64,000 nt of DNA, taken from Escherichia coli (lineage in GTDB: Bacteria > Pseudomonadota > Gammaproteobacteria > Enterobacterales > Enterobacteriaceae). Position numbers and translations under genes: made by a program. Shown one piece after another: positions 2,839-33,497 of the stretch. How positions within the stretch are numbered: the first letter of the stretch is position 1; each line of letters starts with the position of its first letter. Below the pieces are notes generated by a model that was not told the origin of the DNA, did not search any database, and saw nothing but the letters and a program-made list of their open reading frames with translations. The stretch lies in NCBI RefSeq assembly GCF_003334305.1, contig NZ_QOWS01000007.1. One strand, 5' to 3'.

Positions 2839-4863
<2,025 letters not shown>

Positions 4864-10511: not shown

Positions 10512-11021
10512 ATGGGTTTGTTCGATAAACTGAAATCTCTGGTTTCCGACGACAAGAAGGATACCGGAACTATTGAGATCATTGCTCCGCTCTCTGGCGA
10601 GATCGTCAATATCGAAGACGTGCCGGATGTCGTTTTTGCGGAAAAAATCGTTGGTGATGGTATTGCTATCAAACCAACGGGTAACAAAATGGTCGCGCCT
10701 GTAGACGGTACCATTGGTAAAATCTTTGAAACCAATCACGCGTTCTCTATCGAATCTGATAGCGGCGTTGAACTGTTCGTCCACTTCGGTATCGACACCG
10801 TTGAACTGAAAGGCGAAGGCTTCAAGCGTATTGCTGAAGAAGGTCAGCGCGTGAAAGTTGGCGATACTGTCATTGAATTTGATCTGCCGCTACTGGAAGA
10901 GAAAGCCAAGTCTACCCTGACTCCGGTTGTTATCTCCAACATGGACGAAATCAAAGAACTGATCAAACTGTCCGGTAGCGTAACCGTGGGTGAAACCCCG
11001 GTTATCCGCATCAAGAAGTAA
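10512..11021 (+). CDS. crr: Glucose-specific PTS EIIA (EIIA-Glc)
   Basis: 169-aa ORF matching E. coli Crr; third gene of the ptsHI-crr operon. Confidence 0.98.
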
Positions 11022-11035
11022 TTCTTGCCGCAGTG

Positions 11036-11065
11036 AAAAATGGCGCCCATCGGCGCCATTTTTTA
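11036..11065. terminator. Bidirectional rho-independent terminator between crr and pdxK
   Basis: A-tract, 8-bp stem atggcgcc/ggcgccat with catc loop, T-tract; lies between the convergent crr and pdxK 3' ends. Confidence 0.85.
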
Positions 11066-11914
11066 TGCTTCCGCCAGCGGCGGCAAAATCAATTCATCGC
11101 TCTCATGCTGCTGGGTGTAGCGCATCACTTCCAGTACGCGCAACCCCGCACGGTGCACCGCATCGTTTAACGCCTTCCCTTTCAGCAAACCACTGATAAG
11201 CTGAGCACAAAACAGGTCGCCAGTCCCTTTCAGGTCGGTTTTTACCCGTGAATGGGAAATGACATTCACGCTGTCGGCACTGACCACCACCACCTGCATC
11301 TCCTGATTTTCTTCATTACCGGAGGCGCTGGTAATCACCACCCATTTTAATGTGTCTGAAAGCAGACTTTTTGCGGCAGCAATGGCACTGTCGAGATCGC
11401 GGCAATTTTTACCGGTCAGGATTTCCAGCTCAAAGATATTGGGGGTAATTCCCTGCGCCAGCGGCAGTAAATATTGTCGATACGCCTCGGGAAGGTCAGG
11501 TTTGACATAAATTCCGCTATCAATATCGCCAATCACCGGATCGACCATGATCAATAGGTCAGGATGGTCTTTGCGTAGCGCAGTCAGCCACTCGGCAAGG
11601 ATTTTGATTTGCGATGCCGTTCCCATATAGCCCGTGGTTACAGCGCGCAGCTGGCGCAGCGCATCACGCTCATGAAGCGCACGCAAATAACCGCTAAACC
11701 ATTCATCCGGAATCGCACCACCGTAGAAAGTGTCATAATGCGGCGTATTGCTCAGCAATACCGTCGGCACGGCAAAAACATTCAGACCGTTCTGTTTGAT
11801 AGCAGGCACGGCAATGCTGTTGCCCACGCTGCCGTAAACCACCTGCGACTGCACGGCGACGATATCCGCCTGCAGCGCCCTGCTCTTATCGTTAAACAAC
11901 AACAAACTACTCAT
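11063..11914 (-). CDS. pdxK: Pyridoxal/pyridoxine/pyridoxamine kinase
   Basis: 283-aa ribokinase-fold ORF matching E. coli PdxK. Confidence 0.95.
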
Positions 11915-11927
11915 TTAATTTTTTCTC

Positions 11928-11993
<66 letters not shown>

Positions 11994-12018
11994 CACAAAA
12001 CAAGGATAAGGTAATTCA

Positions 12019-12387
12019 ATGAAGAAAATCATTTGTCTGGTCATTACACTACTAATGACACTCCCCGCTTACGCGAAGTTAACTGCCCATGAAGAAGCCC
12101 GCATCAACGCCATGCTGGAGGGATTAGCACAGAAAAAGGATTTGATATTTGTGCGCAACGGTGATGAACATACCTGCGATGAAGCGGTTTCTCATCTGCG
12201 TCTGAAGCTGGGCAATACCCGTAACCGCATTGACACTGCCGAGCAGTTTATTGATAAGGTTGCTTCGTCGTCATCGATTACCGGGAAGCCGTATATTGTG
12301 AAGATCCCCGGTAAGAGCGATGAGAACGCACAGCCTTTTTTACATGCGCTAATTGCGCAGACGGATAAAACGGTGCCTGCGCAATAA
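12019..12387 (+). CDS. yfeK: Uncharacterised secreted protein with signal peptide
   Basis: 122-aa ORF with N-terminal signal peptide ([19 protein letters not shown]); matches E. coli YfeK. Confidence 0.85.
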
Positions 12388-12389
12388 TC

Positions 12390-13301
12390 TTAAATCCCCG
12401 CCCCCTGGCTAAAATGCTCTTCCCCAAACACCCCGGTGGAAAGGTAGCGATCGCCACGATCGCAGATGATCGCTACCACCACCGCACCAGGGTTAGCTTT
12501 TGCCACCCGCAGTGCTCCGGCAACCGCGCCGCCGGAGCTGACGCCACAGAATATTCCTTCCCGCACTGCCAGTTCGCGCATGGTGTTTTCTGCATCGCGC
12601 TGATGAATATCCAGCACCTCATCCACCAGAGAAGCGTTGAAAATCCCCGGCAGATATTCCGCAGGCCAGCGGCGAATGCCGGGAATACTGCTGCCTTCTT
12701 CCGGCTGCAGGCCAACAATCGTTACTGGTTTGGATTGTTCGCGCATAAAGCGTGAAACGCCGGTGATAGTGCCGGTTGTTCCCATGCTGGAGACAAAATG
12801 GGTAATGCGCCCGCCGGTTTGCTGCCAGATTTCCGGCCCGGTAGTGGTGTAATGGGCGTAAGGGTTATCGGGATTATTAAACTGATCGAGCAGCTTTCCT
12901 TCGCCACGATTCGCCATCTCCAGCGCCAGATCGCGCGCACCTTCCATGCCCTGCTCTTTGGTGACAAGAATCAGTTCCGCACCATAAGCACGCATCGCCG
13001 CACGGCGTTCCTGGCTCATGTTGTCGGGCATCAGCAATTTCATGCGATAGCCTTTCAGCGCGGCAATCATTGCCAGCGCAATGCCGGTGTTACCACTGGT
13101 GGCTTCGATTAAGACATCACCCGGTTTAATTTCCCCGCGCTTTTCCGCCTCGACGATCATCGAAAGTGCCGCACGATCTTTCACCGAACCTGCCGGGTTA
13201 TTGCCTTCCAGTTTTAACCACACTTCACTGCCGTTATCCGGCCCCATTCGCTGCAACTTCACCAGAGGCGTATTGCCTATTGTTTGTTCTAATGTACTCA
13301 C
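12390..13301 (-). CDS. cysM: Cysteine synthase B (O-acetylserine sulfhydrylase B)
   Basis: Matches E. coli CysM from VSTLEQTIGNTPLVKLQRMG; GTG start at 13299-13301 with upstream GGATAGAG RBS, preferred over the track's 26-codon extension. Confidence 0.93.
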   Translation of the reverse strand: MSTLEQTIGNTPLVKLQRMGPDNGSEVWLKLEGNNPAGSVKDRAALSMIVEAEKRGEIKPGDVLIEATSGNTGIALAMIAALKGYRMKLLMPDNMSQERRAAMRAYGAELILVTKEQGMEGARDLALEMANRGEGKLLDQFNNPDNPYAHYTTTGPEIWQQTGGRITHFVSSMGTTGTITGVSRFMREQSKPVTIVGLQPEEGSSIPGIRRWPAEYLPGIFNASLVDEVLDIHQRDAENTMRELAVREGIFCGVSSGGAVAGALRVAKANPGAVVVAIICDRGDRYLSTGVFGEEHFSQGAGI

Positions 13302-13324
13302 GATCTCTATCCATACGTGGTGTT

Positions 13325-13364
13325 GCCTGATGCGACGCTTGCGCGTCTTATCAGGTCTACAGGT
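13325..13364. repeat. REP (repetitive extragenic palindromic) element
   Basis: gcctgatgcgacgc...gcgtcttatcaggtctac imperfect palindrome typical of E. coli REP, between cysA and cysM inside the cysPUWAM operon. Confidence 0.75.
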
Positions 13365-13434
13365 TACAAACCTTGCCATTAAAAAGCCCGGATCGCGGGA
13401 AGCGCCTCCGGGCGTTTAACATTCACTCAACCTA

Positions 13435-14532
13435 TCAGGCGCTTTGTGCGAGAGCAAGTTCCTCATCTCGGGTTTCGATACGCTCGTCGCCGTTATACAG
13501 CCGCGCATGTTGCAGACCAACGAATAAACGCTCGCCACGCTGCGGGGCATCGTCGCCATGCATCACGACCGTCAGCGGTTCGTTGTACCACCCCAGCGGC
13601 TGCACCACTAATTGGGTGTAGTGACCTTTCGGGCTGGCTTCCAGTACCTGTACCGGCAGCGGCGAATCGAGACTGGTACGGCGGCTGATATCCACTTCCC
13701 ACGGGCGCAGGAAGAGATCCACCGGACCCTGATACGCAGGTGTGTAGCCCAGCGGCCAGCGATGCGCGCCAACATGGAACTGCCCGCCGCGAATGGTTCC
13801 CTGCAGGCGGTTCACTTCGCCCATAAATTCGAGTACAAAACGGGTCGCTGGTTCGCGCCATACCTGATTCGGCGCATCAGCCTGTTCAATATTCCCCTGA
13901 CTCATCACCACTACACGATCGGCTACTTCGGTCGCCTCTTCCTGGTCGTGGGTCACGAACACGCTGGTGAATTTCAGCTCTTCATGCAGTTGACGCAGCC
14001 AGCGACGCAGCTCTTTACGCACCTGCGCATCCAGCGCGCCAAACGGTTCATCAAGCAGCAGAATTTGCGGTTCTACAGCCAGCGCGCGCGCCAGCGCCAC
14101 GCGCTGTTTCTGGCCGCCGGAAAGCTGTGCCGGATAACGATCTGCCAGATGAGCAAGCTGCACCATCTCCAGCAATTTTGTCACTTTCGCTTTGATGGCT
14201 GCGGCATTCGGGCGCTCGCGACGTGGCAGCACCGTCAGGCCAAAAGCGATATTGTCGAACACCGTCATATGACGGAACAGCGCGTAATGCTGGAACACGA
14301 AACCGACCTTGCGATCGCGCGCGTGCAGTCGGCTGACGTCGGTGCCGTGGAAGCGAATATGCCCGCTGGTTTGATGCTCCAGCCCGGCGATAATGCGCAG
14401 CAGCGTGGTTTTCCCGGAACCGGACGGCCCCAGCAACGCGACCATCTGACCTGAAGGAATATCCAGTGAGATATCGTTCAGCACCTGGGTGCGACCAAAC
14501 GACTTCTTAATATTGGCAATCTCAATGCTCAT
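13435..14532 (-). CDS. cysA: Sulfate/thiosulfate ABC transporter ATP-binding subunit
   Basis: 365-aa ORF with Walker A (GPSGSGKTT), ABC signature (LSGGQKQR) and Walker B; matches E. coli CysA. Confidence 0.97.
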
Positions 14533-26624: not shown

Positions 26625-27527
<903 letters not shown>

Positions 27528-27532
27528 CTCCC

Positions 27533-28585
27533 TCACCCCCATTCCCGCATCCGCTGATGCAACGTCAACGACGGCTTCTCGGCAAACAGCTGCTGGTAAT
27601 CCGTGGCAAATTGCCCCAGATGCCAGAATCCCCACTGCATGGCGGCGTCTTTTACCGTTGTGCTTTGCGACCACGGGCTTATCAGTTCGCGGCGTACGGC
27701 GTTCAGGCGAATGCGTTTCAGCCACGCGTTTGGGCCAATGCCTAAAATAGCGTGAAACGCGTTTTGTAGCGTGCGGCGACTGACATGCAGTTGATTACAC
27801 AAGTCCAGCACCGTCACCGGCTCAGACATATTTTCCAGCACATATTCACGGGCGCGGGAAAGTAATCTACGGTAACTCTGATGACTGATGCTTTCCGCCG
27901 TCACCATTGGTTGCGCGTCTTCCAGCATCGCCCCCATCGCCATTAGCAAATTATCCCCCAGCACTTTTCGCACTGCAGGCTGATGGAGATTTTCCGGGTT
28001 CTCGCAAAACGTCGCCAGCGCCTGTTGGACAAAGCCCCACAGCGCGGCTTTATGCTGCTCTTTCACTTCCAGCGCCGACTGGCTACGCAGCATATGTAAT
28101 ACCCGATCCGGGTTATGCAAAAAGTTAGCCTGCCGGGTGATGACATCTTCAGAAAGCACCACGCCCAGGATCGTGTAATCATCCGGCGTGCTCAGTTCAA
28201 ATTCAGTGCCACCAGGGCGGGTGGCGATTTCCGCGCTTCCCAGACATTGCGAACCGATAAATCCCTGCTCACCGCGCGTCGCCGGAATGCCAAACCAGAA
28301 CGAGTTCGGCCAGACCAGGCACGACTGACGCAGCGCCAGACCGGTGTATTCACGAAAAACCTGAATATCATCGAGTAGAATTTCCGTAAATTCACCATGA
28401 AACTTGCCCGGATGCAACTGATCGTAAATCTGCTGCCAGGCGGTAATCGTTAAAGCATGTTCATAGACATCCGTTGTCTGTCGTTGATGAACATTATCCA
28501 CTTCGACCTTCGGCGTGAGCTTCAGGTTTTCGGGTAAGGGTTCATGATAAAGATGGTGCAAATTGGCTGTACGGGTCTTTTTCAT
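27533..28585 (-). CDS. eutR: AraC-family activator of the eut operon
   Basis: 350-aa ORF with C-terminal AraC-type HTH; last gene of the eut cluster; matches E. coli EutR. Confidence 0.95.
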
Positions 28586-30720: not shown

Positions 30721-32082
30721 TCAGAAGAACAGTGACGGATCGCCCGCCCGTTTGGTCAGGCGACCGTTTGCCATAATGCCCATGCTTTCCAGCCAGCGTT
30801 CAAACTCTGGTGACGGGCGCAGGTTGAGTAACTGACGCACAGTGGCGGTATCGTGGAATGCGGTGGTCTGGTAGTTGAGCATGATGTCATCACCCAGCGG
30901 CATCCCCATGATGTAGTTGCAGCCTGCGGTGGCGAGCAGGATCATCAGGTTTTCGTTGAGGTTCTGGTCAGCGTCAGCGTGGTTGGTGTAGCAGCAGTCA
31001 CAGCCCATAGAGATGCCGCTCAGCTTGCCCATAAAGTGATCTTCTAAGCCAGCACGGATAATCTGGCGGTCGTTGTAGAGATACTCCGGCCCAATAAAGC
31101 CGACCACGGTGTTGACGATAAACGGATCGTAATGACGCGCCAGCCCATAGTTACGTGCTTCCATCGTCACCTGGTCAGCGCCGAAGTTAGCGCCAGCGGA
31201 TAGCGCAGAGCCTTGTCCGGTTTCGAAGTAGAGGCAGTTTTCCCCGGCGATACGGTTGAACTCTGCACCCACTGCGCGCGCTTCGTCGAGCATCGCCAGT
31301 TCCACGCCAAACTCTTTCAGCCCTTTTTCGCTGCCACAGATACTCTGGAAAATCAGTCCGCCAGGCGCGCCGCGACGAATCGCTTCGATCTGGGTGGTGA
31401 CGTGCGCCAGTACGCAGCCCTGAGTTGGGATGTTGAATTTGTCGATCACGCCGTAAATGGTGTCCAACACGCGGCTTAAGTTTTCCACGTCGTCAGTCAC
31501 CGGGTTAACGCCGATCACCGCATCGCCCACCCCGAAGGAAAGCCCTTCGTAGATTTGCGCGGCGATACTTTGCACGTCGTCACGGGTGTCATTTGGCTGC
31601 AAACGGGCGCTGAAGGTGCCCGGAATACCAATGGTGGTATTGGCCTTTTTGATTACCGGCATTTTCTTCGCGCCGTAGATCAGGTCCGCGTTGGAGCAAA
31701 TCTTCGCTACCGCCGCGACCACTTCCGAGGTCAGCCCTTTGCGGGTAAAGGCAATGTCGTCCACGCTGGTTTCATCGCTCAGCACATACTCACGCAGTTC
31801 GCTGATGCTCCAGTTTTTAATCTGGTTGTAGGCCGTTTCGTTAACATCGTCCTGAATCAGCCGCGTCACGCAGTCATCTTCATAGGCAATCACCGGATTA
31901 TTGCGGATGTCCGCTACGGTCATTTCCGACAACACCTGCTTTGCCGCCACGCGCTCCTGTGAGCTTGCCGCTGCAACGCCCGCCAGCACATCCCCCGAAC
32001 GCAGTTCGTTGGCTTTAGCCAGCACCTCTTTTACATCCTTAAACTGATATACATTGCCGAACAATGTGGTCTTTAGTTTCAT
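30721..32082 (-). CDS. eutB: Ethanolamine ammonia-lyase large subunit
   Basis: 453-aa ORF matching E. coli EutB. Confidence 0.97.
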   Translation of the reverse strand: MKLKTTLFGNVYQFKDVKEVLAKANELRSGDVLAGVAAASSQERVAAKQVLSEMTVADIRNNPVIAYEDDCVTRLIQDDVNETAYNQIKNWSISELREYVLSDETSVDDIAFTRKGLTSEVVAAVAKICSNADLIYGAKKMPVIKKANTTIGIPGTFSARLQPNDTRDDVQSIAAQIYEGLSFGVGDAVIGVNPVTDDVENLSRVLDTIYGVIDKFNIPTQGCVLAHVTTQIEAIRRGAPGGLIFQSICGSEKGLKEFGVELAMLDEARAVGAEFNRIAGENCLYFETGQGSALSAGANFGADQVTMEARNYGLARHYDPFIVNTVVGFIGPEYLYNDRQIIRAGLEDHFMGKLSGISMGCDCCYTNHADADQNLNENLMILLATAGCNYIMGMPLGDDIMLNYQTTAFHDTATVRQLLNLRPSPEFERWLESMGIMANGRLTKRAGDPSLFF

Positions 32083-32093
32083 AAGTCGTTCCC

Positions 32094-33497
32094 TCAGGAA
32101 GGAAATGCGAGTGATTTCACCGTCACCGGCACAACCGATCCGCCAAAAAGAGGCGTACCAATGTCGATATAGTCCCCCGCGCGGACAATCACTTCGTCAA
32201 TGACTGCCAACGGGAGTTGTTGTAGCTGTGGGCGCAACAACATGCCCAGAGCTTTACCAAAGTCCTGCCCGGCCACCACCAGCAGGGGATGCGGATTCGG
32301 AAAACGCGCGACGAAATCGACCAGCGCGTTGATGACCGTCAGTACCGCGGCGTAACGCACAGGCAGCGAGGCGGGAAGCGCCAGCACGTACGCGTCAGTT
32401 TTGGGATCAAGATCCAGCTGAAGCAGCGCCTGTTGCCAGGCACTCACCAGATCCGTTTCATCAATCGGGATCGCCACCGGCAAATTGCGCAGCGGCAGTT
32501 GTACGCCCTCCAGCCAGATTGTGCTGCCAGAGAGCGAAAGGGTATGTGCACCCGCGCCAATCACCGTGGCGCGTACGGTTTGCGCCGGAAACTGCACATT
32601 CATCTCACGCAGGCGCGGATGGTCATGCAGCGCCGTTGCCAGAAGTGGGCCAATATCGGCAAAACAGAACGGGTCGGCGGGCTGGTGGCGATAACATTCG
32701 CCCACGCCTCCAGAAAGCGTAATGATTTCGGGCGTAACACCTGCGGGCAGCAAACCGGTTTGCATCAATGCCTGCGCGAGCGGCGAAAGCGTTCCGTCAA
32801 TCACTTCGACAATCAGCGCCGCCATCCGCCGGGTAACCTGCACCAGCTGCGCGCCGGTCAGCGAACGGGCGTCAGTGCCTGCACCGAAGCACTCATCCAC
32901 AATCATCTGCCCCGGTTTATGAGCGTAAACCACGCGCCCCTGGCTGTCGGTTTCCAGCAGGCGACCACCGACGTTGAGACAGGCAGTGCCGCTGATTTTT
33001 CCGGCATCGAACAGGGCGTAGTTCGCGGTGCCACCGCCGATGTCGATATTCAGTACCCGACACAGCCGTTGTTCAGAAAGGGTTTGCGCCCCAGCTCCGT
33101 GACCGGCGATCACGGATTCGAGGTGCGGCCCGGCGCTGGCAACGACAAAATCCCCCAGCGATTGAGAGAGCGCCATCACCGCCGGGCGAGCATTGCGGGT
33201 TTTCGCGCTTTCACCGGTGATGATGATGGCACCAGAATCAACGCTTTCCGGCGCAATACCCGCAGCCTGATATTGCTCGAGTATTAAGGTTTTCAGTTCC
33301 GCTTCTTTTAAACCGCCCTGTTTATCGACAGGGGTAAAGAACACCGGACTTTGCCAGCTAATTTCGCGTTTAATGAATTCGTAGCGCGGCACCTGCGACA
33401 CCGCCGCACGGTTAACCAGCTCCAGGTGGGAGAAAATCACCTGGGTGGTGGTGGTGCCGATATCGATACCGACGCTCAATAGCTGGCGAGTGTTCAC
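32094..33497 (-). CDS. eutA: Ethanolamine ammonia-lyase reactivating factor
   Basis: 467-aa ORF matching E. coli EutA; only 11 bp separate it from eutB. Confidence 0.96.
   Translation of the reverse strand: MNTRQLLSVGIDIGTTTTQVIFSHLELVNRAAVSQVPRYEFIKREISWQSPVFFTPVDKQGGLKEAELKTLILEQYQAAGIAPESVDSGAIIITGESAKTRNARPAVMALSQSLGDFVVASAGPHLESVIAGHGAGAQTLSEQRLCRVLNIDIGGGTANYALFDAGKISGTACLNVGGRLLETDSQGRVVYAHKPGQMIVDECFGAGTDARSLTGAQLVQVTRRMAALIVEVIDGTLSPLAQALMQTGLLPAGVTPEIITLSGGVGECYRHQPADPFCFADIGPLLATALHDHPRLREMNVQFPAQTVRATVIGAGAHTLSLSGSTIWLEGVQLPLRNLPVAIPIDETDLVSAWQQALLQLDLDPKTDAYVLALPASLPVRYAAVLTVINALVDFVARFPNPHPLLVVAGQDFGKALGMLLRPQLQQLPLAVIDEVIVRAGDYIDIGTPLFGGSVVPVTVKSLAFPS

Follow-up and report, generated by a model that had tools for sequence, protein, structure and literature searches.

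The direct, tail-to-tail junction between yfeK and cysM that is found in the 64-kb stretch of Escherichia coli DNA analysed here (the window) is the ordinary majority allele of the species, and it is annotated in this form in thousands of RefSeq genomes. At this one chromosomal site E. coli carries either a yfeS cassette or an empty junction, a presence/absence polymorphism in which K-12 has the first state and the window the second. The window carries no yfeS deletion; yfeS is a K-12-type accessory cassette. For the locus as a whole, we have good confidence in an explanation that combines a common yfeS-less allele, a cassette that was gained and then shuffled among lineages, and an ordinary convergent gene pair whose transcripts would overlap at their 3' ends.

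The yfeK/cysM junction in the window and in K-12

In the window, yfeK occupies 12019-12387 on the + strand and encodes a signal-peptide protein of 122 aa that belongs to the DUF5329/PRK10318 family, with a score of 279.6 bits against the NCBIfam profile NF007646 (cutoff 171); its TAA stop lies at 12385-12387. cysM, the last gene of cysPUWAM, runs on the - strand at 12390-13301 and encodes cysteine synthase B (303 aa, 99.3% identical to K-12 CysM), with a GTG start at 13301 and a stop whose complement is the TTA at 12390-12392. The complete spacer between the two stop codons consists of two nucleotides, TC, at 12388-12389. The letters across the junction are ...CCT GCG CAA TAA tc TTA AAT CCC..., the stretch at 12376-12398 being GCCTGCGCAA TAA TC TTA AATCCC, and the yfeS-less, or window-type, junction can be written as GCGCAATAATCTTA. 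An earlier note on this DNA had described the two stops as 2 bp apart on opposite strands, and three sources agree with it: the sequence itself, the list of open reading frames (yfeK at 12019-12387 on the + strand, a cysM frame ending at 12390 on the - strand) and the RefSeq annotation of E. coli E2865, which is 100% identical over a 1-kb query spanning the junction and has yfeK and cysM at identical coordinates, 12019-12387 and 12390-13301. The absence of yfeS, also claimed there, is confirmed by a tblastn search of the 64-kb window with K-12 YfeS, which was negative (best E-value 1.4).

K-12 does have yfeS between yfeK and cysM, as the same note had stated. In MG1655 the order is yfeK (124 aa), 32 bp, yfeS (735 bp), a 188-bp spacer and cysM, which in the wider arrangement gives pdxK - yfeK - yfeS - REP pair - cysM (b2418-b2421), so that in K-12 the yfeS-REP cassette keeps yfeK and cysM apart. 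The flanking genes, the sigmaE promoter region and the cysM 3' end from TTAAATCCCC onward are common to K-12 and the window. When aligned, both alleles are alike up to …CCTGCG and again from TTAAATCCCC…; the part in between is 8 nt long in the window, CAATAATC (12382-12389, + strand), and is the counterpart of the 967-bp yfeS + REP cassette of K-12 (3705-4671 of locus L001). The difference reaches into the C-terminus of YfeK, which is ...TVPAQ* in the window (122 aa), a form specific to the yfeS-less allele, and ...TVPAEGN* in K-12 (124 aa). The 188-bp spacer between yfeS and cysM in K-12 contains two REP palindromes (fold z ~ -5), and against Rfam it matches ES036 with 40.9 bits, above the gathering score, and naRNA4 in part. 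At the window junction, with its 2-nt spacer, there is no REP/BIME and no REP-derived match in Rfam. When 11000-13600 was searched at a permissive threshold, Rfam identified no RNA family at the junction; its only results in that interval were a partial match to a REP, between cysA and cysM, and others at chance level.

Two alleles at one site

Of 5426 complete E. coli genomes, 4038 (74%) show the direct junction, scored by a contiguous match of a 120-bp probe centred on the window junction, and yfeS is present in 1387 (26%). The two counts together cover 5425 of the 5426 genomes, and there are thus essentially just two alleles. The gap is 2 nt in every yfeS-less E. coli locus inspected, and the cassette boundaries are identical in all loci inspected. 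Since many K-12 laboratory derivatives are among the yfeS-positive complete genomes, the natural frequency of yfeS is probably below 26%. The wording of a strain-specific absence, which the earlier note had chosen, is thus wrong, given that the yfeS-less state is the majority state and that K-12 is in the minority with an extra cassette; the identical junction is also found in an Escherichia genome outside E. coli (L002). The note had named a direct junction shared by K-12 and most E. coli as the finding that would overturn its reading: K-12 lacks such a junction, and most E. coli have it.

An alternative is that this strain or its lineage lost yfeS recently by deletion. K-12 carries yfeS, and its cassette has an 8-bp direct repeat, ATTAATCC, at the two ends, a pattern typical of repeat-mediated deletions. 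We consider this highly improbable. If the cassette had been lost between the 8-bp repeats, GCG GAAGGAAATTAATCC TTA would be left, whereas the window has GCG CAATAATC TTA, and the expected product occurs in no complete E. coli genome; the closest full-length matches to it fall short of its length by 6-7 bp, have an identity of 93% or less and represent the window-type junction. This mismatch between the junction and the predicted product, combined with the absence of the product, leads us to reject a recent deletion. Furthermore, the same junction is shared by 74% of complete E. coli genomes and, base for base (GCGCAATAATCTTAAAT), by the Escherichia genome L002, whose identity to E. coli is ~91% at all points of the region and which thus belongs to a species ~9% diverged from it. 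The repeat itself carries little weight, as 8-bp repeats are common by chance and the one at the K-12 cassette ends is one of 14 chance-level families in 1081 bp. Finally, yfeS looks foreign in its GC content and is patchy in its distribution, which also counts against a recent loss.

Origin of the yfeS cassette

The state of the site in other enterobacteria was read from a sample of 22 loci, obtained by scanning for YfeK with exact peptide words at one genome per species, a sample that excludes Salmonella, E. fergusonii, Klebsiella and others; pdxK, yfeK, yfeS and cysM were placed in each locus. Apart from the identical junction in L002, yfeK and cysM overlap in Escherichia sp. E1V33, are separated by a 1-nt gap in the enterobacterium UBA5654, and have spacers of ~30-85 nt in Superficieibacter sp., C. 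amalonaticus and Entomohabitans (29, 28 and 57 nt, respectively, from stop to stop); yfeS is present in none of these loci. In other species the site holds unrelated inserts: 1.8 kb with two ORFs in E. albertii, 3.8 kb with two large ORFs in C. sedlakii, and 0.5 kb in S. electus, where an ORF that NCBIfam names as SgcJ/EcaC-like has a stop overlapping the cysM stop. Gene order differs in yet other genera (L009, L013). The sole non-E. coli locus with yfeS among the 22 is that of a Pseudocitrobacter MAG (L006). P. faecalis has the yfeS-less junction too, but the 3' half of its yfeK is 92-96% identical to E. coli, and for this reason it was dropped as an independent outgroup; judging from this similarity, it may have acquired the empty allele by exchange.

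The cassette, of ~0.96 kb, stands out from its surroundings. The GC content of yfeS is 39%, against 46-57% in the neighbouring genes. Its product has a WGR domain as the only Pfam match (residues 9-71), and NCBIfam likewise reports a WGR N-terminus. Beyond the enterobacterial cluster, the next YfeS homologues are at most 65% identical, the named ones coming from Paenibacillus, Dysgonomonas, Clostridium and Lysinibacillus, and the nearest of them fall in Firmicutes and Bacteroidota. Between K-12 and the Pseudocitrobacter MAG, on the other hand, yfeS is 95.9% identical at the nucleotide level, compared with 80% for yfeK and 89.5% for cysM. The composition and distribution of yfeS are in conflict with those of its flanks, as would be the case for an acquired cassette.

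Several more specific descriptions of the cassette were considered. It consists of yfeS plus two REPs, and with no recombinase and no terminal inverted repeats we rejected it as a mobile element. Plasmid or phage cargo was likewise rejected, as plasmids yielded one homologue (70% identical, on a single E. coli plasmid) and phages yielded none. As for a defence system, PADLOC gave no match for YfeK, YfeS or the ORFs of the inserts that other species have here. The NCBIfam profiles, applied to the same set of proteins, gave names only to YfeK (PRK10318), to the WGR N-terminus of YfeS and to the SgcJ/EcaC-like protein of S. electus.

The low GC content, the remote homologues and the outgroups without yfeS thus speak for a compact ancestral junction to which the yfeS-REP cassette was added later. 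On the basis of parsimony, GC content and distribution, it is most likely that the compact junction is the older state and that the yfeS cassette is a horizontally acquired insertion. An ancient deletion of yfeS that was afterwards spread by recombination is a less likely source of the present pattern: the 8-bp direct repeat that flanks the K-12 cassette is compatible with a repeat-mediated deletion, and the diversity of the cassette within E. coli, up to 5-7%, makes yfeS old in the species as well. Composition, homologues and outgroups nevertheless lead us to prefer the acquisition of the cassette at a compact junction.

Movement of the two alleles

Whatever its first source, the cassette appears to have travelled together with the DNA on both sides of it. 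In a sliding comparison of K-12 with the Pseudocitrobacter MAG, a tract of 93-100% identity begins in the 3' half of yfeK, continues through the cassette and fades within the 3' end of cysM. The tract thus reaches into both flanks, which points to import by homologous recombination and not to site-specific insertion. A similar picture is obtained within E. coli. PE15, which is without yfeS, groups with K-12, which has it, and does not differ from it in pdxK or within the first 356 nt of yfeK (100% identity). AR_0114 (without yfeS) pairs with KK19-02 (with yfeS) on the flank trees. NZRM3614 (without yfeS) pairs with VL40 (with yfeS) on the cysM tree only, and on the yfeK tree it is found with the window. 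The states with and without yfeS are thus interleaved on the E. coli flank trees, which indicates that the alleles were moved by recombination, and the cassette diversity of up to 5-7% within E. coli indicates that the polymorphism is old. Most likely, therefore, the alleles have been shuffled among E. coli lineages, and also across the boundary from Escherichia to Pseudocitrobacter, through homologous recombination in their conserved flanks.

Transcription across the junction

With two nucleotides between the stop codons there is no room for a terminator at the junction, as the earlier note had argued, and the terminator scan predicts no intrinsic terminator at 12300-12450. Over the larger interval 11000-13600, a simple scan for terminators and promoters reports no terminator anywhere on the - strand; on the + strand the vicinity of the junction is free of them as well, and no promoter is reported at the junction. 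Given the 2-nt gap and the lack of a terminator, any 3' end would have to fall inside the opposite gene, and the 3' ends of the yfeK and cysPUWAM transcripts probably overlap.

On the + strand, transcription of yfeK would start from a promoter-like motif of the sigmaE type, GAAACTT-N16-TCAAA, which is located upstream of the gene at 11958-11985 and which we take to fit the sigmaE consensus. The pdxK-yfeK spacer (107 bp) differs from that of K-12 by one base, which lies outside this motif. Both yfeK and yfeS have been treated as genes of the sigmaE regulon (PMC2685091, PMC3326320, PMC6850105). Past the yfeK stop, C exceeds G for ~230 nt, and a C-rich, G-poor stretch of rut-like composition extends over 12388-12620 on the + strand; in the first 80 nt after the stop C/G is 1.8, a ratio that reaches or exceeds the 95th percentile for windows of this size across the 64 kb. 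Untranslated RNA that is rich in C and poor in G has the composition typical of Rho entry sites. This composition makes Rho-dependent termination the most likely fate of sigmaE-driven yfeK transcripts, which would stop on untranslated C-rich RNA antisense to the 3' end of cysM.

In the other direction, CysB-driven cysPUWAM transcripts would end inside antisense yfeK or continue into pdxK (11063-11914, - strand), which is on the same strand as cysM and is the next sense gene for cysM read-through after antisense yfeK. Read-through of cysPUWAM that is not stopped by Rho would halt at the bidirectional intrinsic terminator in the crr/pdxK gap (11033-11066, AAAAAUGGCGCC-loop-GGCGCCAUUUUUU, z -4.8 and -4.6), the first convincing one downstream of cysM on the - strand.

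The end of yfeK also contains an inverted repeat, ATTGCGCAG / CTGCGCAAT, at 12352-12385, with arms of 9 bp at 12352-12360 and 12377-12385 and a 16-nt loop, and it is conceivable that this hairpin serves as a compact bidirectional stop, as a pause site or as a protector of 3' ends, in which case the overlap would be limited to ~40 nt, without any long antisense RNA. Such a role looks doubtful to us. It would draw on a perfect 9-bp stem, which is extended to 11 pairs on - strand RNA and which, as an isolated 48-mer, folds with z -3.15 on that strand (-16.4 kcal/mol, a value as good as this in 1 of 200 shuffles); on the + strand, however, z is only -1.65, and when the 91 nt around the junction are folded, z falls to -0.3 and -0.2 for the two strands, the same as for shuffles. 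Collision-type bidirectional terminators, of which E. coli has hundreds, need just a pausing hairpin between convergent genes (10.1101/2022.10.23.513370). The hairpin of yfeK has no U-tract next to it on either strand, and its loop measures 12-16 nt, hence the silence of the terminator scan. The 3' arm is made of allele-specific bases, the stem being weakened in the K-12 allele, and the hairpin is kept in P. faecalis; on the other hand, the stem is mismatched in L002 and deleted in E1V33, and both arms are coding (LIAQ / PAQ*), which could account for their conservation. Rho-dependent termination of yfeK transcripts within the antisense of cysM is the reading that we retain for the + strand.

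Is the arrangement under selection?

The tight junction could have been selected as an excludon, in which the responses to envelope stress (sigmaE-driven yfeK) and to sulfur limitation (CysB-driven cysPUWAM) would antagonize each other by antisense RNA and polymerase collision, with the cassette acting as an insulator in strains of the K-12 type. We regard this as unlikely. The adjacency of yfeK and cysM at 0-85 nt is retained in several genera and the sigmaE promoter motif is conserved, as selection would predict, yet gene order differs in other genera (L009, L013), and in E. albertii, C. sedlakii and S. electus the site tolerates unrelated inserts (0.5-3.8 kb). Convergent excludons, of which there are 165 in MG1655, are enriched for short spacers (ExcludonFinder, PMC12288877), and REPs, which are found in ~30% of 704 convergent spacers, are associated with higher expression of the two genes (bioRxiv 10.64898/2026.03.23.713779), both of which would speak for such a scheme. 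Both alleles persist in E. coli, however, and yfeK is a frameshifted pseudogene in the two O157-like genomes inspected (NZRM3614, ERL05-1306; 2/2). The tolerated inserts, the coexistence of the two alleles, the yfeK pseudogenes and the altered gene order together argue against strong selection on the arrangement.

The further step of regarding the yfeS-REP cassette as a naturally segregating insulator, without which sigmaE-yfeK and CysB-cysPUWAM transcription would collide and form dsRNA over the 3' ends of cysM and yfeK, strikes us as quite improbable. Were it to hold, envelope stress would be coupled to cysteine synthesis in the 74% of genomes without the cassette, with K-12-type strains being uncoupled, and the coupling would extend through read-through to pdxK, which supplies PLP, the cofactor of CysM. 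Regulatory differences between strains would then arise from a 1-kb indel that recombination carries from lineage to lineage and even from genus to genus. An ordinary convergent pair, with a cassette present in some genomes and absent from most, is the reading that we prefer.

Implications and comparison with other convergent gene pairs

The practical message is that K-12 does not represent the reference state at this site: most E. coli are without the accessory yfeS, so what is missing relative to K-12 is not by that fact a deletion. The pair of natural alleles, with and without a REP spacer between the same convergent genes, offers a possible test case for the effects of REPs and short spacers on convergent transcription. 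A mildly interesting by-product is that both alleles have moved by recombination, among E. coli lineages as well as between them and Pseudocitrobacter.

In its geometry the junction has close counterparts nearby. The first 50 kb of the window hold seven convergent pairs, in which the genes are 38 bp (yfeN/yfeR), 41 bp (crr/pdxK), 2 bp (yfeK/cysM), 57 bp (pbp4b/yfeX), 5 bp (hemF/eutR) and 95 bp (tkt/ypfG) apart or overlap by 4 bp (yfeH/ypeB). Three of the seven pairs are thus at most 5 nt apart or overlapping, and tight tail-to-tail geometry is routine; yfeH/ypeB and hemF/eutR have the same geometry as yfeK/cysM, and the hemF/eutR gap is 5 bp in K-12 as well. The crr/pdxK pair differs, as its 41-bp gap accommodates a GC-rich hairpin between an A-tract and a U-tract, whereas yfeK/cysM has 2 bp and a weak hairpin in coding sequence without U-tracts.

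There is no sign of a new mechanism here, and overlapping convergent 3' ends are already well described in E. coli. Measured against the excludon concept (PMC7154746), yfeK/cysM resembles the convergent excludons in that the two genes lie on opposite strands, the spacer is very short and the terminator of each would necessarily fall in the transcription unit of the other. No embedded intrinsic terminator was found at yfeK/cysM, where a rut-like composition downstream of yfeK and a weak hairpin are present. With an overlap that the gap and the lack of a terminator would imply, yfeK/cysM can thus be described as an ordinary convergent pair of excludon-like geometry.

The yfeK/cysM junction in other genomes

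Comparison with Pseudocitrobacter suggests that recombination between genera has occurred around the yfeK/cysM junction, in yfeS-plus and yfeS-minus alleles alike, because the 3′ half of yfeK (nt ~200–369) is far closer to its E. coli counterpart than are the 5′ part of the gene and PdxK. In both Pseudocitrobacter genomes compared (loci L005 and L006), this 3′ half is 92–98% identical to E. coli, against 67–77% for the 5′ part and an amino-acid identity of only 66% for PdxK.

The same site seems tolerant of insertions. Unrelated inserts occupy it in three other species: two uncharacterised ORFs of 280 and 175 aa in E. albertii (locus L004, 4415–5794), two large, secreted-looking ORFs of 628 and 654 aa in C. 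sedlakii (L010, 4431–8142) and one SgcJ/EcaC-like ORF of 140 aa in S. electus (L011, 4473–4895), whose stop overlaps that of cysM by 4 bp. PADLOC gave no match for any of these junction-insert ORFs. As for YfeS itself, the only close plasmid-borne relative found is an unannotated homologue (hit H113) at 3366–4067 of NZ_CP098226.1, a dog-derived E. coli plasmid of 50 kb; it shows 70% identity across 96% of the protein.

The annotations of two O157-like strains, NZRM3614 (L032, 1620–1987) and ERL05-1306 (L024, 292–659), treat yfeK as a frameshifted pseudogene. Its T6 run, equivalent to window 12337–12342, has lost one T, which cuts the protein short past about residue 107; in addition, GTG replaces ATG as the start codon. 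Elsewhere the gene order itself differs. In Enterobacter sp. ENT03 (L009, 2–1239) and Atlantibacter sp. (L013, 4405–6204), cysM is followed immediately by a same-strand pdxK, with spacers of ~18 bp and ~66 bp, respectively, and yfeK is located elsewhere. Since a PLP kinase gene thus adjoins that of a PLP-dependent cysteine synthase, this arrangement suggests that the two might be co-transcribed in these genomes.

Other features of the window

Besides yfeK/cysM, the window holds two further very tight convergent pairs, yfeH (+) and ypeB (−), which overlap by 4 bp (2619–2622), and hemF (+) and eutR (−), separated by 5 bp (27527–27533), the same gap as in K-12. The 41-bp convergent gap between crr and pdxK contains a bidirectional intrinsic terminator (11033–11066) of textbook architecture, with an A-tract, a GC-rich 12-bp stem and a U-tract, and its folding gives z values of −4.8 and −4.6, one per strand. 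In the cysA–cysM spacer (13324–13356), a partial match to naRNA4, a REP-derived Rfam family, scores 34 bits, below the gathering score, and is probably a single REP.

Finally, eutB adjoins eutA in the window with a gap of 11 bp (30721–33497), which is a second site where the extra DNA is that of K-12: in MG1655, the 6.8-kb cryptic prophage CPZ-55, absent from the window, lies between these genes and splits the eut operon.
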